This document shows, piece after piece, positions 1 to 10,389 of a stretch of 10,389 bases of DNA. Origin of the DNA: a virus (lineage: Duplodnaviria > Heunggongvirae > Uroviricota > Caudoviricetes); the IMG/VR virus record IMGVR_UViG_2636415610_000011; one strand, written 5' to 3'. The notes beneath the pieces were generated by a model. That model made no database searches. It was not told the DNA's origin and worked only from the letters and a program-made list of their open reading frames with translations. Numbering within the stretch: position 1 is the stretch's first letter; each line of letters opens with the position of its first letter. The translations under genes and the position numbers were made by a program.

Positions 1-1260
1 ATGCCAAAACTCACAGATATGCAGATCCGCGCATGGATAAAGGCGGGAGACAGATTTGATGGCAAGGCAGACGGCAACGGCCTTTATATTTGCTACCCCA
101 AAAACTACACAGTCCCGTTCTGGCGATTCCGCTATAAGCTCGCAGGAAAGCAGCGGGCTATGGTTATAGGCTCTTACTCCGAACTGTCACTATCAAAAGC
201 CAGAGAAACAGCAAAAGAGCTGTCAGCCAGAGTTGCTCTTGGCTATGACGTAGCAGCAGAGAAACAGGAACGAAAAGCTGAAGCACTGGCAAAAATGGAG
301 GCTGAGAAAAACGCCATGCGTGTTTCAGATCTGGCCTCCGAATACTTCGAGCGCCAGATACTTCCGAGATGGAAACATCCCGATATCCTTCGCCGGAGAA
401 TTGATAAGGATATTAACCCCTGCATTGGGCATATGAAGGTAGAGGACGTTAAGCCACGCCACATTGACGACATGTTGAAAGGTATCGTTGACCGAGGAGC
501 ACCAACGATAGCAACAGATGTATTACGCTGGACACGCCGTATCTTTGACTATGGGATAAAACGCCACGCTCTGGAGATAAACCCTTGTTCAGCGTTTGAA
601 GTATCTGATGCTGGTGGTAAAGAGGTTTCCCGCGACCGTTGGCTAACTCGCGATGAGCTTATCAGGCTATTCGAGGCTATGCGCACCGCAAAAGGATTCA
701 GCCGCCAGAACGAACTGACATTTAAGCTATTGCTGGCACTATGCGTTCGTAAGATGGAGTTATGCGCCGCACGATGGGAAGAGTTTGATTTAGATGGTGC
801 GGTATGGCATTTGCCGGAAGAACGCAGCAAAAACGGAGACCCTATTGATATACCTCTACCTTCCCCAGCCGTTGAATGGTTGAGAGAGCTACACACCTTT
901 TCATGTAATAGCGCATGGGTGCTTCCGGCCAGGAAGATGCAAAACAGAATGATCCCACATATTCAGGAAAGCACTTTACCCGTAGCACTGGCTAAGGTTC
1001 GCGCCGAAATGCCGGATGTGCCTAATTTCACGATTCACGACTTCCGACGCACCGCACGTACTCATTTAGCAGCGTTGGGTGTTGATCCTGTTGTGGCGGA
1101 ACGATGCCTCAATCATCGCATTAAGGGCGTAGAGGGGATTTATAACCGCCATCAGTATTTTGATGAGCGTAAAGCAGCACTGGCACAGTGGGCTGATCTG
1201 CTGGTGGCACTGGAAAGCGGAAAAGACTACAACGTAACGCCTCTCAGAAGGGCGAACTAA
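1..1260 (+). CDS. int: Tyrosine site-specific integrase, P4-type (N-terminal arm-binding domain of DUF4102 type plus C-terminal catalytic domain)
   Basis: 419-aa ORF. N-terminus LTDMQIRAWIKAGDRFDGKADGNGLYICYP...WRFRYKLAGKQRAMVIGSYSELSLSKARE matches the arm-binding domain pattern of P4-family integrases. C-terminus carries tyrosine-recombinase catalytic residues (HDFRRTARTHL ... LNHRIKGVEGIYNRHQY). ATG at window position 1, so promoter, attL and any tRNA target lie upstream outside the window. Confidence 0.93.
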   Translation: MPKLTDMQIRAWIKAGDRFDGKADGNGLYICYPKNYTVPFWRFRYKLAGKQRAMVIGSYSELSLSKARETAKELSARVALGYDVAAEKQERKAEALAKMEAEKNAMRVSDLASEYFERQILPRWKHPDILRRRIDKDINPCIGHMKVEDVKPRHIDDMLKGIVDRGAPTIATDVLRWTRRIFDYGIKRHALEINPCSAFEVSDAGGKEVSRDRWLTRDELIRLFEAMRTAKGFSRQNELTFKLLLALCVRKMELCAARWEEFDLDGAVWHLPEERSKNGDPIDIPLPSPAVEWLRELHTFSCNSAWVLPARKMQNRMIPHIQESTLPVALAKVRAEMPDVPNFTIHDFRRTARTHLAALGVDPVVAERCLNHRIKGVEGIYNRHQYFDERKAALAQWADLLVALESGKDYNVTPLRRAN

Positions 1261-1355
1261 CTGAATAGATTGAGCCTAGCTCGACGGGGCGAAAAGCGGG
1301 AAGCCTTACCGCCTGGCTCAATCACAAAATAAGGCGCAGCGTAAAAGGTGACGCA

Positions 1356-2321
1356 ATGAACGACTCTCATGAAACAACTGCGGTGCATAGAAATTTATGG
1401 CAGGAATCAGGTATTCCACCTTTGGACTACTGCACGATAGAGCGAGCATCAAAATTATTAAATTGTGAAATTGATGATATATGGCATTGGAAAGATAGAC
1501 TACATATAGACTTTTATGTCTATGCTGACTTTCTTGATTTCATTGAAGCTGATGCCGCCATCCACTTCAAAAAAGATGCTGATTTTATAACTGATTTATT
1601 ACTTATGTACCCAGAAGAAGTAAGGTTTACATTTCCTTTTCTTATTACCAGCGCAAGCAACGAAGTTTATATCCCAGCATCTGAAAGCGGTGCTTATGAG
1701 CTATTTTATGCACATAAACCACTGACAGTTGAAGACAGAGACAATAAAAATGTTTTTGAACAAATTGGCAAAAACTCTTTTATTGTAAGAAAATCAATTG
1801 CATGCGGATTGTTGCGTGTACGCGGTAGTACAACACGACATTATCATTCACAAGAATGTGGAGAGCCATATGTGCGACTTGAAGCAACATTTGATTGTGA
1901 TCTATATAAATTCAAAATGCAAAGTTCCCAGATTCACCTGAGTAGCCTGTCAGATAAAAACATTTATATAACAAAGGCTGATTTAGAATATCTTCACGAC
2001 GCAAAGGTTAATGGAAGTTTTGACGCAGCTAAGAGCAAAAAACGATACGAAATGGCGGTAGAACAGGAACTAATACCTGAAATAAAAAATAGCAACCATA
2101 ATGCCGAGAGACATGCTGAAAACAGGGAAAAACTTTTCAAATCAGCAATATATCTTTTGTCAAAGTATCCTGATGAATGCCGTGGCAAAAAGAAAGAAAT
2201 AAGCCCTGAGAAGTGGCGGGATTGCATAGTGGCTCATAAAGACGAAATTCCACCGTTAGCAATCACAAATGAAGATGTGATTTTGAGACACTTACGTGCT
2301 GCCGCCAACGGTAAGGGGTAG
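1356..2321 (+). CDS. Hypothetical protein, lower-GC orphan cargo gene in the int-alpA slot; function unknown
   Basis: 321-aa ORF with RBS AAGGTG (1345-1350) 5 nt before the ATG. GC is visibly lower than the flanking integrase and alpA (by-eye estimate, about 35-40% versus about 50%). Followed by a strong intrinsic terminator, so it is its own transcription unit. No catalytic motif recognised (no Walker A, HNH or obvious HTH). Confidence 0.75.
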   Translation: MNDSHETTAVHRNLWQESGIPPLDYCTIERASKLLNCEIDDIWHWKDRLHIDFYVYADFLDFIEADAAIHFKKDADFITDLLLMYPEEVRFTFPFLITSASNEVYIPASESGAYELFYAHKPLTVEDRDNKNVFEQIGKNSFIVRKSIACGLLRVRGSTTRHYHSQECGEPYVRLEATFDCDLYKFKMQSSQIHLSSLSDKNIYITKADLEYLHDAKVNGSFDAAKSKKRYEMAVEQELIPEIKNSNHNAERHAENREKLFKSAIYLLSKYPDECRGKKKEISPEKWRDCIVAHKDEIPPLAITNEDVILRHLRAAANGKG

Positions 2322-2336
2322 AGTAGCTAACTATTC

Positions 2337-2367
2337 AGGCACAGTATCATTACTGTGCCTTTTTATT
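2337..2367 (+). terminator. Rho-independent terminator after the orphan gene
   Basis: Perfect 9-bp stem AGGCACAGT (2337-2345) / ACTGTGCCT (2352-2360), 6-nt loop ATCATT, then T-tract TTTTATT (2361-2367); starts 16 nt after the stop codon. Confidence 0.7.
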
Positions 2368-2391
2368 GTTCATATATGTACAGATACTTCC

Positions 2392-2432
2392 TCCCGTAAC
2401 GAAGCAACAACTATCGCTAAGAGGTTACGGGA
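2392..2432. promoter_or_regulatory. Inverted repeat overlapping the alpA ribosome-binding site (putative operator or RBS-sequestering structure)
   Basis: TCCCGTAAC (2392-2400) and GTTACGGGA (2424-2432) are perfect reverse complements separated by 23 nt. The alpA RBS AAGAGG (2419-2424) sits at the loop-stem junction and the ATG is at 2436. Confidence 0.35.
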
Positions 2433-2435
2433 AGC

Positions 2436-2639
2436 ATGAACACCGACACTATTCCTACAAAAGGCTATATCAGACGCTTCCGCCTGGCTGAATTGCTGGG
2501 CGTTAGTGTATCCACCATCGACCGTAAAGTAAGAAACGGTTCACTACCACGTCCGGTAAAGCTGGGAGAAAAAATAACTGCGTTTGATGCGGTTGAGATT
2601 CACAACTGGCTGGCAGAACGCCGCGGGAAGGTGGCCTGA
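2436..2639 (+). CDS. alpA: AlpA/Vis-family small HTH transcriptional regulator / excisionase-like protein
   Basis: 67-aa ORF; IRRFRLAELLGVSVSTIDRKVRNGSLPRPVKLGEKITAFDAVEIHNWL is the characteristic AlpA (prophage CP4-57 regulator) / P4 Vis-like MerR-type HTH. Position downstream of a P4-type integrase is typical. Stop overlaps the next start (TGATG). Confidence 0.85.
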   Translation: MNTDTIPTKGYIRRFRLAELLGVSVSTIDRKVRNGSLPRPVKLGEKITAFDAVEIHNWLAERRGKVA

Positions 2640-3070
2640 TGGAAAAGAAAAACCGCCCATTACAGGCGGCTAATTCAGATATTCGCGTATCTGATGTTAC
2701 GCCCCTTACAAAATCCCTTCAAGAACCAAAGCGCACACCGAAAAAGCATCGTGCCAGAGTCTATATGCTGCGTACTGGTATAGAGGGATGGACAGAAAAT
2801 GACATTCTTCGCTACTGCCGTCTGTCTTCTGGTCGTAACTATGCAACAGAGTTAGAACGCCAGCTTGGAATCACTCTGGAGCGTATCGACGAAAAGAATC
2901 CTGATGGTATCGGAACACACCTTCGCTACCGTTTCTCCTGCCGTGGTGATGTTCTGAAAGTGATCACTCATGTTAACCATCTTGCGAACATAAATGATCA
3001 CAACGGACTTTCTCAGCAGGAAATTGCCGACATTCTGAAACTCTACCCGAACGCGTTTAACGCCGCCTAA
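2639..3070 (+). CDS. Hypothetical protein (143 aa), translationally coupled to alpA
   Basis: ATG 2639 overlaps the alpA stop; RBS GGAAGGTGG upstream. Basic N-terminus (KRTPKKHRAR). No family recognised. Confidence 0.7.
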   Translation: MEKKNRPLQAANSDIRVSDVTPLTKSLQEPKRTPKKHRARVYMLRTGIEGWTENDILRYCRLSSGRNYATELERQLGITLERIDEKNPDGIGTHLRYRFSCRGDVLKVITHVNHLANINDHNGLSQQEIADILKLYPNAFNAA

Positions 3071-3082
3071 CGGAGACTGAAA

Positions 3083-3916
3083 ATGAACATCGAAAAAAGC
3101 AGATTAATTTCTGAGGCCGCCCCTCATCTGAACGCCTCTCTGGGCACAATTAACGGTAATGAATTTGCCGCAATTGTCCCGGTTATTCCTGGTCATATCG
3201 GTGGGCGTGAAACCAATATTGTTAGCGCAAAAGCGTTACACAAAGCGTTGGGCGTGGGAAAAGACTTCTCTACATGGATCACTGATCGCATCTCTGAATA
3301 TGACTTCACCATTGGGCACGATTACTCAGTCCATAAAACAATTTCCCCAAATTTGGGGAAAAGCCCGAATGGCACGGCTTACAGCAAGATTAAGCACTCT
3401 GGCAGACCCGGCAAAGACTATCTGTTAAGTGTCGGAATGGCGAAAGAACTGGCAATGATCGAACGCAATGATCAGGGGCGCGCTATCCGCCGTTATTTCA
3501 TCCAGTGCGAGGAAGAATTACAGCGTAGCGTGCCTGAAATCGCCGCCCGCTATCGTCGCCAGCTAAAAGCCCGTATCAGTGCCGCAAACAACTTTAAGCC
3601 AATGTGCGATGCGCTGAATATGGCCCGTGCCGAGATGGGGAAAACGACGCAGCAACACCACTACACAAACGAGAGCAATATGATTTCTCGTATCGTTCTT
3701 GGTGGGCTAACTGCTAAGCAGTGGGCGCGGATAAATGGCTATTCTGGCGAACCTCGCGACCATATGAACGCAGAACAGCTTGAGCACCTCTCATATCTCG
3801 AAAGCACCAATATCACGTTAATTGATATGGGCATGGAATATGAGCAGCGCAAAGGAGAACTCACCCGCCTGTCGCAACGCTGGCTCGCTAAGCGTCTGGA
3901 GGCGGTCCATGTTTAA
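3083..3916 (+). CDS. Phage antirepressor-like protein (AntA/Rha/Bro-N-type N-terminal domain)
   Basis: 277-aa ORF with RBS GGAG (3072-3075). N-terminal region NIVSAKALHKALGVGKDFSTWITDRISEYDF...GRPGKDYLLSVGMAKELAMIERNDQGRAIRRYFIQCEEEL matches the conserved AntA/Rha-type antirepressor DNA-binding domain. C-terminal half not recognised. Confidence 0.8.
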   Translation: MNIEKSRLISEAAPHLNASLGTINGNEFAAIVPVIPGHIGGRETNIVSAKALHKALGVGKDFSTWITDRISEYDFTIGHDYSVHKTISPNLGKSPNGTAYSKIKHSGRPGKDYLLSVGMAKELAMIERNDQGRAIRRYFIQCEEELQRSVPEIAARYRRQLKARISAANNFKPMCDALNMARAEMGKTTQQHHYTNESNMISRIVLGGLTAKQWARINGYSGEPRDHMNAEQLEHLSYLESTNITLIDMGMEYEQRKGELTRLSQRWLAKRLEAVHV

Positions 3917-4091
3917 GCCGACAGGAACACCACAACCTCAAAAACGCTACAAAGATGCCCACGGAGCACTCGTTACTGTCGAAAGCGTGTCTCACAACCG
4001 AGTGACGTTTTATCGCGACGGGTATCAATCGCCATGCGTACAACCGCTGGCACGTTTCATGAAGGAGTTCGCGGAGGTTAACAAATGCTAA
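3909..4091 (+). CDS. Small hypothetical protein (60 aa), possibly DUF4222-like
   Basis: RBS GGAGG (3898-3902) 6 nt before ATG 3909; start overlaps the upstream stop by 8 nt (translational coupling). The ORF track's longer 3822 start lies inside the upstream gene and is rejected. Pattern YKDAHGALVTV...RVTFYRDGYQSPCVQPLARFMKEF resembles small DUF4222-type prophage proteins, from memory only. Confidence 0.6.
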   Translation: MFKPTGTPQPQKRYKDAHGALVTVESVSHNRVTFYRDGYQSPCVQPLARFMKEFAEVNKC

Positions 4092-5152
4092 CCGCCCAGA
4101 AGAAGACATTTTCACTGGCTGGTATGTCGCCAAAATCCAGCAATATGACAGCAAAGTCAGGCATTAATACAGCAGATACAAGCAAAGTTTATCATTTGCT
4201 GGTGGTAGGAGCGGATGCCTTAACTATGTCAGAAATTACGGTCGATGGTGTTAGCGTTGAGAAGGTCAGCGGCTGCGCCAGAGAATTTCTGGTCGTAGAT
4301 GGCTTTCTCTGCTCGCGTAGTGACTCCACAAAAACCTTCGTCCACGCGCGTGACGTTAACGAAATGAGCGCGATGTACTGTGCTTCTGGTTCTTCCAATA
4401 GTGAGTTTTCGGAGTCCATAAAAAAGAGCTTGCCGTTATGCGGCAACACGGTTTATGGTTATAAGGCACCTCATAAAACGGGTGCCGGGATTGGCGTCCT
4501 GGTAAATCGAATGGCGACATATGACGCGCCGAGCGTCTTTTTTTATGTCGTAGGTCTGACTCACCCATTTTTTGGGCGTTGGTGTATAATCCAGCGCCTT
4601 TGTCAATCAATGGTGGCTCAGGCAGGGGCTTCTTCGGAAGCGCCGGTATCCATTCGAGCCGGTTACGCCAACCCTGTCTGGGCTACCACCAGCGAAATTG
4701 GCGTTTCCGGTGGTAGCGTTACATGCTATCGAATGGAGGCTGCCACATGCTGGCTACTACCCCTACCCAAAAACCGCAATTTATCTGGATTATCGCCGCA
4801 GTTCGCCGCGATTGCCCGACAATTACCGCCAAAATTCATCATATTGCTGCCGAGTCTGAACGCGATGCTCGCCGTTCTCTGGTGCGCGATCACGTCTGCT
4901 TTTTTGCTGGTCGTATCCGCATGGAGGTGGCACATGATTAAAACCTACGATGTGCATATGGATCCCCTCGAACGCACAAGCCAGATCATCACACTGACAG
5001 AAGTGATTAACGACATTCTGGTGAGCAACTCTCCCTCACGAGACGAAAGACTGAAGGCGTTACTCGCGATATTGGATCTCGCCGTTCGTGACGTTCATTT
5101 CCTGCTGGAAGGTGGCGAAATGCCAGTAAAAACGGGGGAAACCAATGAATAA
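4085..5152 (+). CDS. Stop-free 355-codon frame; probably a composite: a roughly 222-aa gene (4085 to about 4753) that has lost its stop and reads through in frame into the 4934-5152 gene
   Basis: RBS GGAGG (4071-4075) and ATG 4085 coupled to the upstream stop (ATGCTAA). Codon usage read by eye looks coding from 4085 to about 4745 (G-rich first positions, few rare codons). The same frame over 4745-4933 is full of rare codons (CTA x3, TTA x3, GGA, CGA, ATA, AGG) while the -1 frame there has none. An automated gene caller would probably report the whole ORF as one hypothetical protein. Confidence 0.4.
4747..4941 (+). CDS. Small hypothetical protein (64 aa) in the -1 frame relative to the 4085 ORF
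   Basis: RBS GGAGG (4735-4739) 7 nt before ATG 4747. All codons are common enteric codons (CTG, CGC, CGT, ATC, CCG, GCC; no rare codons). Stop TAA (4939-4941) overlaps the next ATG (4934) in the same 8-nt coupling arrangement used elsewhere in this operon. Alternative start ATG 4723. Confidence 0.5.
   Translation: MLATTPTQKPQFIWIIAAVRRDCPTITAKIHHIAAESERDARRSLVRDHVCFFAGRIRMEVAHD
4934..5152 (+). CDS. Small hypothetical protein (72 aa)
   Basis: RBS GGAGGTGG (4923-4930) just upstream of ATG 4934; coupled to the upstream stop and to the downstream start (ATG 5145 / TAA 5150-5152). In frame with, and contained in, the 4085-5152 ORF. Confidence 0.45.
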   Translation: MIKTYDVHMDPLERTSQIITLTEVINDILVSNSPSRDERLKALLAILDLAVRDVHFLLEGGEMPVKTGETNE

Positions 5153-5339
5153 CTCAATTAATACCCCTCGCCTTACGTCCGCACTTCAATTAATCGAGCA
5201 AGCAGCGGCTGTCCTGGTTGCTGTCAGTCTTTCGGCTGAAGAAATGGACGCTACTGATGTCGTGGATGCGATTAAAGCGTGCTCATCTTTGGTTAACGAT
5301 GCCCGTGCAGAGCTGGTAATTCTTGGGGGTGAAAAATGA
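5145..5339 (+). CDS. Small hypothetical protein (64 aa)
   Basis: ATG 5145 overlaps the upstream stop by 8 nt; G-rich RBS GGGGGA (5134-5139). Ala/Leu-rich, helical-looking sequence. Confidence 0.65.
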   Translation: MNNSINTPRLTSALQLIEQAAAVLVAVSLSAEEMDATDVVDAIKACSSLVNDARAELVILGGEK

Positions 5340-5599
5340 ATATCAACTTAATTTATCGTCATCCGTGTGGGCTGGAAATTGAATCATTGCTGAGCCGTGA
5401 AGAGCCATATCCAGACACATTCACTCTTGCAGATCGCACGACTGAACGGCTTACCAGAGCGCGCACAGGTCTGGTTCATGTGATGAATGAGATTCTTCCA
5501 TCGGTGGGAGGGGAACAGGCGACAGTAATCACTAGCTGGCTACAAAAAGTTACCTCTCTGATAGATATCAGTTTAATCGATGCGGAGAGTGCGAAATGA
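5336..5599 (+). CDS. Small hypothetical protein (87 aa)
   Basis: ATGA start/stop overlap with the upstream gene (5336-5339); RBS GGGGGTG (5323-5329). Confidence 0.7.
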   Translation: MNINLIYRHPCGLEIESLLSREEPYPDTFTLADRTTERLTRARTGLVHVMNEILPSVGGEQATVITSWLQKVTSLIDISLIDAESAK

Positions 5600-5817
5600 C
5601 CAACATCCAGCTCATTGAAGCGCAATGTCGCATCGAACAGGTTCAGACTGTTTTAGGGTTCTGGCTTGAAGGGGCCAGCCCCAGCAACAGAGACAAGTTA
5701 ATGATTGGCGCGGTTATGTCACTGCTCAATGGCGTACCAGAAGCTATTCAGGAAGCAGACGAATTGTTGGGCAAATATGAGTTACAGAATCATTCAGGCG
5801 AGGCGAAACATGAATAA
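5596..5817 (+). CDS. Small hypothetical protein (73 aa)
   Basis: ATGA overlap with the upstream gene (5596-5599); RBS GGAGAG (5584-5589). Confidence 0.7.
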   Translation: MTNIQLIEAQCRIEQVQTVLGFWLEGASPSNRDKLMIGAVMSLLNGVPEAIQEADELLGKYELQNHSGEAKHE

Positions 5818-6412
5818 TTTCTTAACTTTCCATGCAGAAGCAACGCCTGACGGCGTAAACATCATGCACCGCAGCAACGATGGCATGACAGAACGCGTTG
5901 AGACCGTCTCATATATTGATGCCGTAAATCGTCTGGATGCCGGGGATTATGACGATAAACCAGATGAAGGCATGTCAATACATCTCGCTATAGCCGATGG
6001 CGGCAACCAGGGATATTTCGATTACACATCACAGCATAACGTCATTATGTGGAGATGGCTGATCGCAACAGTATTCATGCTGGAAATGAGAGAGGAAAAC
6101 GGCACTGTCAGCATCATTGATGATACTGGCAATCCTTCCGAAGTGGCTGTTTATTCCAACGGCATCGTCGCCATGCCGCTGTATCCAGTAGCAGAGCGCC
6201 TCGCTATGGCAAACAACATTGAGGGCGCGATGATAGAACGTTTTGGCATCGAGTCTGGCACAGAACGCGCCATCATTTTCTACAGAGCCATGATGGATGT
6301 GGAACAAGGAGCACTGACTCCATTTGGTCGTGAAACGCTTGCTGAACTTCACAACAGCTTTATAGCTGAACTGAATGAAAACGGCATGCCAGCGGAACCA
6401 GTGACGCACTGA
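5810..6412 (+). CDS. Hypothetical acidic protein (200 aa)
   Basis: ATG 5810 overlaps the upstream stop (ATGAATAA, stop at 5815-5817); RBS AGGCGAGG upstream. The ORF-track start at 5705 lies deep inside the previous gene in another frame and is rejected. Confidence 0.75.
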   Translation: MNNFLTFHAEATPDGVNIMHRSNDGMTERVETVSYIDAVNRLDAGDYDDKPDEGMSIHLAIADGGNQGYFDYTSQHNVIMWRWLIATVFMLEMREENGTVSIIDDTGNPSEVAVYSNGIVAMPLYPVAERLAMANNIEGAMIERFGIESGTERAIIFYRAMMDVEQGALTPFGRETLAELHNSFIAELNENGMPAEPVTH

Positions 6413-6422
6413 GGATGGAGCC

Positions 6423-6764
6423 ATGATTACTAAAAATTTCCGACTGAATGCGCTGGCAAATAAGTATGCGTCGGCACTGTATAACCACATTACCTCCACC
6501 AGCGGCGGGGACTATTTCATGGTTGATGCGGACGGCGAGGCCGTACGTGTGGAAATCGTCAATGGAGTAAAAGACGTTCGCAGCCTGATCGATAGCTACA
6601 CACTGGCAGCCATGAAAGTGTTCTACCCGCAGTGGGAAACCGTGGGGATCGAGCTTCTTGAGCGTTGCGTCACTAAGGACGGATTGACTGACGTCGGGCG
6701 TGAGATATGGCAAAGCATGGTTAATGACATGGGCGCAACTGTAGCGGGAGGTTCTCATGCGTGA
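6423..6764 (+). CDS. Hypothetical protein (113 aa)
   Basis: RBS GGATGGAG (6414-6421) immediately before ATG 6423, which lies 10 nt after the upstream stop. Confidence 0.75.
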   Translation: MITKNFRLNALANKYASALYNHITSTSGGDYFMVDADGEAVRVEIVNGVKDVRSLIDSYTLAAMKVFYPQWETVGIELLERCVTKDGLTDVGREIWQSMVNDMGATVAGGSHA

Positions 6765-7128
6765 AAATGCAGAAATGGCGCTTAGCTCCGCAATCGGAGA
6801 GCAGGTGGCAAAGATTGCTGGTGCTGTGTGGATTCATAACCTTCATTCTACTGGTGAAGAGAAAATGGCAATTCAGACGCCAGAGGGACGCACCATTACT
6901 ACATCTCTGAAGCCGTCAGATGTTTGTGATCTGATTTGCGCATTCATGTACCCAGCAATGAGGACTGTCCACAGCGATAAGTGGAAACTTGCGACAACCG
7001 CTGAATTTGATATGTGGCTAAACAATGATGGCATGCTGACTGATTACGGAATAACCAAGTGGCAGATGCTGGTTAGCCATATCGCAAACGCTATAGACCA
7101 CGTGGGGTACGGTGATGCGAAACATTGA
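6757..7128 (+). CDS. Hypothetical protein (123 aa), immediately upstream of and coupled to the primase-helicase
   Basis: ATG 6757 overlaps the upstream stop by 8 nt; its own stop (7126-7128) overlaps the primase start. Confidence 0.75.
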   Translation: MRENAEMALSSAIGEQVAKIAGAVWIHNLHSTGEEKMAIQTPEGRTITTSLKPSDVCDLICAFMYPAMRTVHSDKWKLATTAEFDMWLNNDGMLTDYGITKWQMLVSHIANAIDHVGYGDAKH

Positions 7129-9871
7129 TCTTATCCGTCAGGTTATCAGTGCGTCTGAAAACAACTGGCCTCATGTGCTGGGCTGCCTGAACATAAATGT
7201 CCCTGACTCTCCGCGCCGTCATGCTCCCTGCCCTGCATGTGGGGGCAAAGATCGATTCCGGTTCGATGACAACGGGCGCGGTAGCTTCATCTGTAATCAG
7301 TGCGGCGCTGGTGATGGGCTGGATTTAATTAAACGCGTAAATAACTGCGACACAACAGAGGCGGCGCTTCTTGCCGCTGATGTTCTGGGTATTGATTACC
7401 GGACAACGGAAACACCAGAAGCCACCAGCCAGAAACGGGAACAACTGGAAACCGAGCGCCAGCGACGCGAACAGGAGCGCCTGAAAAGGGCAGAGAAGGA
7501 CGAACAACAAAGACGGGATACGTTTTCCCGTCAGTTTGATGACATGCGCAGAAAGGCTGTAAACGGCAAATCTGATTATCTGGTTGCGAAAGGGGTAGGT
7601 GATTTTACATTCCCCGTGTTGCCCGATGGATCTCTGTTGCTGGCGCTGGTGGATAAATCCGGCGCAGTCACAGCAGCACAGACTATTACCTCACATGGTG
7701 AAAAAAGACTCCTGAGAGGTTCAGCAAAGCGGGGGGCATATCACGCCATAAACGCGCCAGAAACAACACAGAGCATCTTAATTACAGAAGGGCTGGCAAC
7801 GGCATTATCTGCCCATTTAATTCGTCCAGAGGCGCTGACAGTGGCGGCGATTGATGCCGGGAACCTGTTATATGTCGCCCAGGTACTGCGGGATAAATTT
7901 CCTTCAGCACAAATCATCATTGCTGCGGATAACGACCACAGCGAAGGAAGACAAAACACGGGGAGAATAGCAGCAGAAAAAGCAGCTTTATCTGTTTCTG
8001 GATGGGTGGCATTACCCCCGACAGATCACAAAGCAGACTGGAATGATTACCACCAAAAACACGGCATTAAATGCGCCACAGAAGCGTTCAATAAGTCAAT
8101 GTACCAACCACAGGGTAATGGCGTGAAACAGGAGCCACAGACCATTGAGGGAAGCGATTTTAAGGTTATGGATACCGACCCACTGAAACCAAGAATAGAA
8201 AGCCGCGAGGATGGTATTTATTGGGTATCTCCGAGAGCTGACAGCCAGAGTGGAGAAATCATCAATAACGAAAGCTGGTTATGTTCTCCGTTAAGCGTTA
8301 TCGGTACTGGCAGAGACGATAAAGACCAGTATCTCATTCTTCGCTGGCTGTCGTTTGGTTCTGAAACGCCGACAACCGCTGCCATTCCACTGGCTGATAT
8401 TGGTGAACGTGAAGGATGGCGCACACTTAAAGCTGGTGGGGTAAATGTCACGACCAAAAGCAGCCTCAGAGCAATACTGGCAGACTGGCTACAACGCAGT
8501 GGCTCTCGTGAATTGTGGCGTGTTGCTCATGCCACTGGCTGGCAATGCGGAGCGTACATCATGCCTGATGGGGAAATCATCGGAACACCTGAAAATCCTG
8601 TGCTGTTCAGCGGGAGAAGCTCAGCCGCAGCCGGATATACCGTCTCAGGGAGCGCGAAAAGCTGGCGTGATAACGTGGCGCGTCTGGCCTTTGGTAACTA
8701 TTCAATGATGACCGGGATCGGCGCAGCACTGGCAGCGCCATTGATTGGGCTGGTGGGCGCTGACGGGTTCGGCATTCATTTCTATGAGCAGTCGAGCGCA
8801 GGTAAGACCACCACGGCAAACGTGGCGAGCAGCTTATACGGCAACCCTGATTTACTGCGGCTGACGTGGTACGGAACCGCGCTGGGGCTGGCAAATGAGG
8901 CCGCCGCCCACAATGACGGACTAATGCCGCTTGATGAAGTTGGTCAGGGCGCTGATCCTGTCAGCGTTTCACAGTCTGCCTATGCGTTATTTAACGGTGT
9001 AGGGAAACTGCAAGGCGCTAAAGATGGTGGAAACCGGGATCTAAAACGCTGGCGTACAGTGGCAATCAGCACCGGAGAAATGGATTTAGAAACATTTATC
9101 GCTACTTCCGGGCGAAAAACCAAAGCCGGGCAACTGGTGCGACTGCTGAATATTCCGTTGAGTAAAGCAGTACGCTTTCACGATTACCAGAACGGAAAAC
9201 AGCACGCAGACGCACTGAAAGACGCTTACCAGCATCACCACGGCGCGTCCGGGCGTGAGTGGATTAAATGGCTGGCAGACCACCAGCAACAGGCTATTAA
9301 AACCGTTCGTGACTGCGAAAGCAGATGGAGAAGCCTGATCCCATCCGATTATGGTGAGCAGGTTCACCGTGTAGCCGCGCGATTTGCCATTCTGGAGGCC
9401 GCATTGTTGTTAGGCGAGGTTGTAACAGGCTGGGATGCTCAGACATGCCGTGATGCGATACAGCACAGCTATAACGCATGGTTGCGCGAGTTCGGCACAG
9501 GTAACAAAGAGCATCAGCAGATTATTGAACAAACGGAGGCATTTCTTAATGCCTATGGGCTTAGCCGTTTTGCACCATTTCCATACAGCCCGGCAGATTT
9601 GCCCATCAAAGATTTAGCCGGATACCGTCAGCGTGGAGAACATGACGAAAGCCCAATGATTTTCTACACATTCCCGGCCACATTTGAAAAGGAGATCGCA
9701 TGTGGTTTCAACGCAAAACAGTTTGCTGAAGTGTTGAAAAAAGCCGGGATGCTAACCCCACCAAACAGCGGTCGTGGATACCAAAGAAAATCACCACGTA
9801 TTCAGGGACGACAAATAAACGTTTATGTACTCAATTACCAGCCAGGAGATTATAACTCATCTGAAGAATGA
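7115..9871 (+). CDS. Primase-helicase of the phage P4 alpha type (N-terminal Zn-ribbon, Toprim primase core, C-terminal P-loop NTPase/helicase-like domain)
   Basis: About 918 aa. Zn-ribbon CPACGGKDRFRFDD...GSFICNQCG; Toprim signatures ITEGLATAL (conserved Glu) and IIIAADNDHSEG (DxD); Walker-A-like FYEQSSAGKTTTA in the C-terminal domain. ATG 7115 preferred; GTG 7112 (ORF-track start) is an alternative. Confidence 0.93.
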   Translation: MRNIDLIRQVISASENNWPHVLGCLNINVPDSPRRHAPCPACGGKDRFRFDDNGRGSFICNQCGAGDGLDLIKRVNNCDTTEAALLAADVLGIDYRTTETPEATSQKREQLETERQRREQERLKRAEKDEQQRRDTFSRQFDDMRRKAVNGKSDYLVAKGVGDFTFPVLPDGSLLLALVDKSGAVTAAQTITSHGEKRLLRGSAKRGAYHAINAPETTQSILITEGLATALSAHLIRPEALTVAAIDAGNLLYVAQVLRDKFPSAQIIIAADNDHSEGRQNTGRIAAEKAALSVSGWVALPPTDHKADWNDYHQKHGIKCATEAFNKSMYQPQGNGVKQEPQTIEGSDFKVMDTDPLKPRIESREDGIYWVSPRADSQSGEIINNESWLCSPLSVIGTGRDDKDQYLILRWLSFGSETPTTAAIPLADIGEREGWRTLKAGGVNVTTKSSLRAILADWLQRSGSRELWRVAHATGWQCGAYIMPDGEIIGTPENPVLFSGRSSAAAGYTVSGSAKSWRDNVARLAFGNYSMMTGIGAALAAPLIGLVGADGFGIHFYEQSSAGKTTTANVASSLYGNPDLLRLTWYGTALGLANEAAAHNDGLMPLDEVGQGADPVSVSQSAYALFNGVGKLQGAKDGGNRDLKRWRTVAISTGEMDLETFIATSGRKTKAGQLVRLLNIPLSKAVRFHDYQNGKQHADALKDAYQHHHGASGREWIKWLADHQQQAIKTVRDCESRWRSLIPSDYGEQVHRVAARFAILEAALLLGEVVTGWDAQTCRDAIQHSYNAWLREFGTGNKEHQQIIEQTEAFLNAYGLSRFAPFPYSPADLPIKDLAGYRQRGEHDESPMIFYTFPATFEKEIACGFNAKQFAEVLKKAGMLTPPNSGRGYQRKSPRIQGRQINVYVLNYQPGDYNSSEE

Positions 9872-9896
9872 GCTTCTTCATGTGCGTAGAAAAGGT

Positions 9897-10007
9897 GTTG
9901 GTTCAGTTGGTTCAGTTGGTTCAATTTGTAAAGAGTATTGTTTTATAAGGATTTTATTCTTTTTATTGAACCAACACTGAACCAACAACACGGTATTTTG
10001 AACCAAC
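9897..10007. repeat. Iteron array: putative replication origin of the island
   Basis: Three perfect tandem GTTGGTTCA (9897-9905, 9906-9914, 9915-9923), then a 43-bp strongly AT-rich tract (9924-9966), then three inverted copies TGAACCAAC (9967-9975, 9978-9986, 9999-10007) spaced 11 and 21 bp (helical phasing). Lies 26 bp downstream of the primase-helicase stop. Confidence 0.6.
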
Positions 10008-10098
10008 ACAATGTGACTGAATTGATGCGCACAACACCTGGCTGGCATCAGAGAGTGTTTTACGAGACTTTCGTAAAATCCTGTGTACAAGGGCGTGA

Positions 10099-10389
10099 TG
10101 AACCGCCCCGGGTTTCCTGGAGAGTGTTTTATCTGTGAACTCAGGCTGCCAGATCATCGTTTCCGATGGAAGCATAATAAGCTTTTTCTGCTTCTGCCGG
10201 TGGGATATGGCCCAGCCTTTCCAGCAATCGTCGATTGTTATACCAGTCCACCCACGTGAGTGTGGCCAGCTCCACTTCTGTCCGGTTTTTCCAGCTCTTA
10301 CGGTGTATTACCTCCGCTTTGTAAAGGCCATTGATGCTCTCCGCCATCGCGTTGTCATACGAGTCACCAGTACTTCCTGTTGATGCCAG
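10099..10389 (-). mobile_element. IS3-family insertion sequence terminus (IS629/IS1203-like), partial, continues beyond the window
   Basis: Terminal sequence TGAACCGCCCCGGG... begins at 10099 (5'-TG end typical of IS3 family) and precedes the 3' end of an rve-type transposase on the - strand. Assignment to IS629 is from memory of its terminal sequence, not a search. Confidence 0.8.
10141..10389 (-). CDS. IS3-family transposase (OrfB, DDE/rve integrase core), C-terminal fragment; 5' end outside window
   Basis: Reverse-strand translation ...LASTGSTGDSYDNAMAESINGLYKAEVIHRKSWKNRTEVELATLTWVDWYNNRRLLERLGHIPPAEAEKAYY... contains the conserved rve C-terminal motif (DSYDNAMAES). Stop at 10141-10143; the frame is open to the window edge. 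Confidence 0.85.
   Translation of the reverse strand: MASTGSTGDSYDNAMAESINGLYKAEVIHRKSWKNRTEVELATLTWVDWYNNRRLLERLGHIPPAEAEKAYYASIGNDDLAA

Follow-up and report, generated by a model that had tools for sequence, protein, structure and literature searches.

Introduction

The 10,389-bp stretch of viral DNA analysed here (the window; IMG/VR record IMGVR_UViG_2636415610_000011) closes with the end of an insertion sequence (IS), and a 12-base sequence from within that end, GAGAGTGTTTTA, recurs in the DNA just outside it. The 12-mer was found exactly twice in the window, at 10051–10062 and 10120–10131, both times on the + strand, as had been reported in an earlier note made from the letters of the window. 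That note regarded the match as unlikely by chance, and suggested that the IS had been inserted next to a target resembling its own end or that the outer copy was left over from an earlier IS end. The question raised by the locus is whether the outer 12-mer had any part in the insertion. The reading favoured here, to which we assign a probability of roughly 0.86, is that of an ordinary, recent IS629 insertion at the end of a contig, made under a loose target preference, in which the 12-mer match is coincidental.

Organization of the island

The genes of the window comprise a tyrosine integrase (1–1260), an AlpA-type regulator, AntA, an Ash-family gene and a primase gene, followed by iterons. 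The primase/helicase-type replication protein (918 aa; 7115–9871, + strand) was matched by the Pfam families Zn_Ribbon_Prim, Toprim_3 and DUF927, and is named 'TOPRIM and DUF927 domain-containing protein' in RefSeq. In an origin-like iteron cluster at 9897–10009, three copies of GTTGGTTCA come first and three inverted copies of TGAACCAAC last, with an AT-rich spacer separating them; the layout of the cluster and its place after the primase gene point to a putative origin of replication.

IS-free versions of the island run approximately 10 kb beyond the insertion point. A comparison with such alleles, as the earlier note had proposed, identified the downstream genes as a 53-aa ORF, DUF2824, P22-type gp7, gp20 and gp16 ejection genes, an M78 peptidase, PerC and Bro-N. 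In the IS-free locus L126, homologues of DUF2824 and of the P22 ejection proteins gp7, gp20 (Inj_translocase) and gp16 occupy 13342–18178 of an integrase/primase island. Ejection-protein genes are unusual cargo for a satellite-like island.

An integrase, an AlpA-type regulator, a primase and adjacent iterons, as expected of P4-like satellites and phage-inducible islands, were all found. The likeness to P4-like satellites and phage-inducible islands extends to the tyrosine integrase, AlpA, the C4 and isrK RNAs, the Zn-ribbon/Toprim primase and the position of the iterons after the primase. The difference is that IS-free alleles of this island encode P22-type ejection proteins downstream; in P4 itself, the capsid-size genes sid, delta and psu lie at the corresponding place.

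Three RNAs were scored above the Rfam gathering score. An int-alpA RNA (1269–1335, 60.6 bits) lies just past the integrase gene, and isrK (4466–4543, 67 bits) and the C4 antisense RNA (4606–4693, 79.5 bits) lie inside the 'ash family' ORF at 4085–5152, which suggests a P4-type RNA immunity region hidden by the protein annotation. Between the integrase and alpA genes, a 321-aa ORF without a Pfam match was found at 1356–2321. The length of this ORF changes from allele to allele (281, 316 or 321 aa); the ORF is absent from the thrW-integrated version of the island, and may mark a variable cargo slot. In another island copy (L124, 3483–6071) the AntA region is interrupted by an IS66-family element; the island is thus hit by several IS families.

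Identity of the insertion sequence

The last 291 bp of the window (10099–10389) come from the right end of an IS629 isoform whose transposase genes lie on the − strand. From 10099 the sequence reads TGAACCGCCCCGGGTTTCCTGGAGAGTGTTTTATCTGTGAACTC..., and the 44-bp tip is an exact match to the ends of more than 120 IS629 copies in IMG/VR prophage contigs. Full copies measured 1310 bp in 22 of 26 cases (e.g. L002, 12955–14264). The fragment was 95.5% identical (278/291) to the copy annotated as IS629 in phage CP-1639, for which 25-bp terminal features at both ends and orfA/orfB are annotated, and 96.9% identical to the L002 copy, for which the RefSeq label is only IS3 family transposase. With many plasmid-borne copies, which carry the annotation IS3 family transposase, identity was 100%.

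The window holds one IS end only, the 25-bp terminal inverted repeat on the 3′-end side of orfB (IRR; 10099–10123, + strand), which begins with 5′-TG and is identical to the IRR of full copies. In a full copy, IRR and the opposite repeat, IRL, agreed in 23 of 25 bases; past position 25 the ends diverge. The 3′ end of the reading frame for OrfB, the DDE transposase, with its final 82 codons and stop, was located at 10141–10389 on the − strand. The encoded residues were matched by the Pfam families rve_3 (E = 2e-12) and rve_2 (E = 1.2e-7), and the position of the frame agrees with the annotated orfB of IS629 in L003. In IS629 the transposase is produced from orfA and orfB through a −1 frameshift, and such a frameshift is annotated in the full L002 copy; of the two frames, the window itself holds the last 82 OrfB residues only.

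Subtypes of IS629 differ by 4–5%, and its isoforms include IS1203 and IS3411 (Rump et al. 2011, PMC3271280). The fragment has in common with IS629, IS1203 and IS3411 of E. coli and Shigella the 44-bp tip, the 25-bp repeat and an rve-domain orfB 3′ end at the same place, and, like most copies (62% in the same study), it lies within a prophage-like element. No difference of substance was found over the 291 of 1310 bp that are visible, the 4–5% divergence being within the reported subtype spread (PMC3271280). Given the tip match, the 1310-bp copies, the annotation in CP-1639, the sequence identity, the rve domains and the reported subtypes, the element is an IS629 isoform, and its earlier description as IS629-like and of the IS3 family is correct.

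Insertion boundary and IS-free alleles

Comparison with IS-free alleles placed the boundary between island and IS at 10098/10099. In the window, ...CAAGGGCGTGA is followed by TGAACCGCCCCGGG (the start of the IS, also given as TGAACCGCC), and in IS-free alleles ...CAAGGGCGTGA is followed by CGTTTTTGAAAG (also given as CGTTTTTGAAAGTGAGC). Homology with IS-free genomes stops exactly at 10098, in keeping with the IS end noted earlier at 10099, and the distance of 90 bp from origin to IS is likewise borne out, the final iteron ending at 10009. Positions 1–10098 were 99.97% identical, with no gaps, to IS-free islands adjoining yicC (e.g. CP024997.2), and the IS is thus a recent arrival in an otherwise typical island.

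The region 9850–10098 is carried by approximately 365 of 5,426 complete E. coli genomes, and the junction seen here was present in 0 of the 5,426. The exact junction, CAAGGGCGTGATGAACCGCCCCGGG, had no match in genome, viral or metagenome contig collections. A query with the IS629 junction gave 26,368 matched places in complete E. coli genomes, many of them not independent; only two covered at least 80% of the query, and these were insertions 556 bp away. Partial-coverage matches to the intergenic region (H144, H145) were considered as further IS insertions and rejected, being islands with other primase modules.

End of the contig

According to the earlier note, the IS end truncates the island. 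The window corresponds to the terminal 10,389 bases of the draft contig JWKE01000058.1 (116,633 bp; assembly GCA_000812325.1), as checked by sequence identity, and the contig end falls at window base 10389, inside a multicopy IS. The same 82-residue partial OrfB product was found on 20 contigs from various assemblies, and in the places listed it lay at, or within 2 bases of, the contig end. Such positions are what assembly breaks in multicopy repeats typically produce. The ending of the window in the IS is thus a short-read assembly break in a multicopy repeat, and a truncation of the island does not follow from it: the window stops since its source contig stops inside the IS. For the same reason the window says nothing on the DNA past the IS; a loss of downstream genes in this genome is possible.

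A related arrangement was found in strain Z1323HEC0422 (L002), where the same IS lies 556 bp further downstream, lacks a target duplication and abuts a truncated ejection-protein gene. The two loci share the island family, the IS and its orientation, and in both the IS lies within a few hundred bp downstream of the origin. They differ in that approximately 4 kb are deleted in L002, whereas the contig of the window ends inside the IS and the far side of the IS lies beyond it.

Origin of the outer 12-mer

The inner copy of the 12-mer (10120–10131) corresponds to IS positions 22–33, of which only the first 4 bases fall within the inverted repeat. The outer copy (10051–10062) starts 48 bp upstream of the IS tip, with 36 bp in between. 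It was present in each of the 15 other copies of the region that were compared, all of which lack the IS at this site; among them are thrW-integrated versions and a divergent ETEC6 allele in which neighbouring bases are changed. The earlier note had named the finding of the external 12-mer as ordinary sequence in IS-free alleles as the outcome against its reading, and this is the outcome obtained with all 15.

The outer 12-mer also straddles a module junction. In ETEC6-type islands the homology of the replication module ends right past GAGAGTGTTTTACGA, and in DUF5906-primase islands with different iterons the shared downstream block begins AGAG-TTTTACGAGAC, inside the outer 12-mer. It also overlaps the left arm of a putative, operator-like palindrome, TTTTACGA-N5-TCGTAAAA (10058–10078; inverted repeat I12). 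Its presence in all 15 alleles, the module junction and the overlap with the palindrome together indicate that the outer 12-mer is native to the island and predates the insertion. On these comparisons, it is part of a regulatory and module-junction region of the island itself.

Homology breakpoints were observed on or beside the outer 12-mer in the window (~10050–10066) and in L144 (~2700–2716), L146 (~3999–4015) and L147 (~3997–4013). Islands whose primases are of the DUF927, DUF5906 or P4-family type, and whose iterons differ, have in common the block that begins at the first palindrome and extends to the 53-aa ORF.

The same comparisons bear on the suggestion that excision or deletion of an earlier IS629 copy left part of its end behind as the outer 12-mer. 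Its identity to subterminal IS sequence and its matching orientation would be explained in this way, but a remnant would not be expected in every other copy examined (n = 15), the divergent ETEC6 allele and the thrW-integrated versions included, nor across a native palindrome and module junction. No IS similarity was found on either flank: aligned in register with the IS, the 21 bases preceding the outer 12-mer matched the repeat at 5 positions, and the 12 bases following it matched at 1. A solo IS-end remnant is refuted in practice by the 15 copies and by the lack of extended similarity, and we attach hardly any credence to it.

Likelihood of a chance match

Of the 12 bases, eight fall beyond the 25-bp repeat, in sequence that IRR and IRL do not share; since this part is not common to both ends, it is unlikely to be what the transposase recognises. 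How improbable the match appears depends on the space that is searched. When the terminal 60 bp of the IS were compared with the adjacent 100 bp, a 12-mer match arose in 65 of 200,000 shuffles (3.3e-4). When the whole 291-bp IS fragment was compared with the rest of the window, at least one shared 12-mer arose in 489 of 2,000 shuffles (24%), and a second one does exist, 7972–7983 being the reverse complement of 10181–10192.

A search of 1.37 Mb of unrelated prophage DNA from E. coli gave the 12-mers of the IS tip at roughly the chance rate, in about 8 distinct non-island sequences (our own reading of the match list) against 8.0 expected, the latter figure counting occurrences. With thousands of IS629 junctions in E. 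coli, one or a few coincidences of this kind are to be expected somewhere, as a rough estimate.

A further short identity was noted between the iteron core TGAACCAAC (three copies in the same orientation, 9967–10007) and the IS tip TGAACCGCC (10099–10104), which share TGAACC; this is probably coincidence.

Comparison with other IS629 junctions

Independent IS629 right-end junctions were extracted from IMG/VR loci (L004–L238), giving 117 in total and 115 after exclusion of IS-containing flanks. Among the 117, the longest exact match between flank and tip (outer 100 bp against terminal 60 bp, either strand) was 9 bases, and matches of at least 10 bases were found in 0 of the 117 flanks. Ungapped similarity did not differ between the 115 junctions and 524 control segments (Mann–Whitney p = 0.74), and near matches to the 12-mer were as rare at the junctions as in the controls.

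These data were weighed against the possibility that the transposase, bound to the 12-mer, steered the insertion to a nearby position. IS911 and IS30 can insert next to sequences resembling their own ends, and the present locus resembles such cases in having a sequence identical to part of the IS end near the insertion point. The exactness of the match, its orientation as in the IS end, its distance of 36 bp from the tip, its low local chance value and the TGAACC shared by the iteron core and the tip would all fit such a process. It differs from the targeting described for IS911 and IS30 in that the similarity lies outside the repeat core (4 of 12 bases within the 25-bp repeat; 5 of 21 in the core), that the insertion does not abut the similar sequence, and that nothing comparable is seen at other IS629 junctions: end-like sequence was not enriched at the 115 independent junctions. 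Further points against it are the occurrence of the junction in none of the 5,426 complete genomes, of which approximately 365 carry the target, and the published finding of no sequence preference within 25 bp of insertion sites (PMC3271280). The claim of end-like targeting is also at odds with the presence of the 12-mer in all 15 other copies examined, and we hold it to be highly improbable.

The coincidental match that we favour has points against it as well. The junction is an outlier, since 0 of the 115 comparison junctions had a match as long, and the local chance is that given above. Two other independent IS629 insertions in this intergenic region (L081 and L002, described below), both oriented as in the window, could moreover hint at a regional preference.

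Target choice of IS629

The fifth base out from the IRR tip was C at 61 of the 115 junctions (p = 1.6e-10), and, as the mirror image, the fifth base out from the IRL tip was G at 50 of 122 junctions (p = 1.4e-4). Among 26 full IS629 copies in IMG/VR loci, a 3-bp target duplication was present in 12. The base counts and the duplication combine to a weak, symmetric target rule, C-N-[NNN]-N-G. The empty site of the present insertion, CG[TGA]CG, fits this rule. The predicted 3-bp target-site duplication is TGA at 10096–10098, whose second copy would lie past the window, and for a simple insertion the far junction would read ...CCCGGGGCGGTTCA-TGA-CGTTTTTGAAAGTGAGC.

In an earlier survey of 47 IS629 sites, no sequence-based preference was seen within 25 bp on either side, and duplications of 3–4 bp were present at 21 (Rump et al. 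2011, PMC3271280). The pattern C-N-[3-bp duplication]-N-G is thus a weak preference, derived here, where the 47 sites had given no pattern (PMC3271280).

A target-site duplication was absent in the other 14 of the 26 full-length copies from IMG/VR loci. The absence suggests that, in prophage regions, deletions beside the IS or recombination between its copies are frequent.

Insertions downstream of the origin

The region downstream of the origin might attract IS629 independently of the 12-mer, for example through DNA structure or replication-linked target choice. Three independent insertions were found within 560 bp, namely that of the window, one at +178 bp (L081) and one at +556 bp (L002, together with the sister strain H2), and all three have IRR toward the origin. 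For three of three, however, a common orientation has p = 0.25 and the numbers are too small, and only 1 of the 115 IMG/VR junctions lies in this island. The partial matches in complete genomes are module mosaics and not IS insertions, IS629 is generally enriched in prophage-like elements (PMC3271280), and the IS66 family also hits the island elsewhere (L124). A regional hot spot of this kind is considered quite unlikely. The form of the idea in which the origin-downstream region is a preferred landing zone, where subterminal IS-like sequence or origin-associated DNA structure may recruit the transposase, is considered very unlikely; if true, it would amount to a regional target rule of IS629 that is so far undescribed.

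The intergenic region and the effect of the insertion

Within the palindrome described above, the motif TACGA-N5-TCGTA occupies 10061–10075. In IS-free alleles it recurs 57 bp downstream, centre to centre (12947–12961 and 13004–13018 in L126), and the IS has landed between the two sites. These are the only two sites in a 22.7-kb island locus; at least two arose in 4 of 100 shuffles. The two palindromes may be operators for the downstream operon.

The promoter scan of the IS-free intergenic region found no promoter, and the Rfam scan of the same region gave only sub-threshold matches to plant and animal microRNAs, which arise from the inverted iterons. A single site came out of the terminator scan, a terminator-like hairpin upstream of the ejection-protein operon and downstream of the palindromes.

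In the IS-free locus L001, a possible 25-codon ORF (ATGCCTGTTCAGCAA...) was noted in 12464–12665, approximately 65–265 bp past the insertion point. In the interval from the palindromes to the 53-aa ORF, it precedes a hairpin that carries a T-run (GATGCCACC...GGTGGCATTTTTTT). The ORF and hairpin could represent a leader peptide or a small RNA.

From this layout, a conserved regulatory region is probably interrupted by the insertion, and the ejection-protein operon probably cut off from transcription entering from upstream.

Discussion

In the reading favoured here, an E. coli island of the integrase/AlpA/primase type recently received a copy of IS629, an IS3-family element moving by copy-out/paste-in, in its non-coding DNA downstream of the replication origin and ahead of the next operon. 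The island's 12-mer was in place before the IS, and the position would have been chosen by the loose local preference C-N-[3-bp duplication]-N-G, here CG[TGA]CG. The IS would be of full length and flanked by a duplicated TGA, and the regulatory region would be split, with the downstream genes cut from upstream transcription. The identity of 12 bases between subterminal IS and island DNA is, as part of this explanation, a coincidence.

Two points of practice follow for loci of this kind. A short exact match beside an IS end needs to be compared with alleles lacking the IS before a targeting signal is read into it, and a window that ends inside a multicopy IS usually marks an assembly break and not a biological truncation.

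Insertions of IS629 into E. coli prophage-like elements are a common and well-documented event, and the present finding is an ordinary one that matters little. The insertion may disable the ejection-protein operon of this island, an effect that would be strain-specific.
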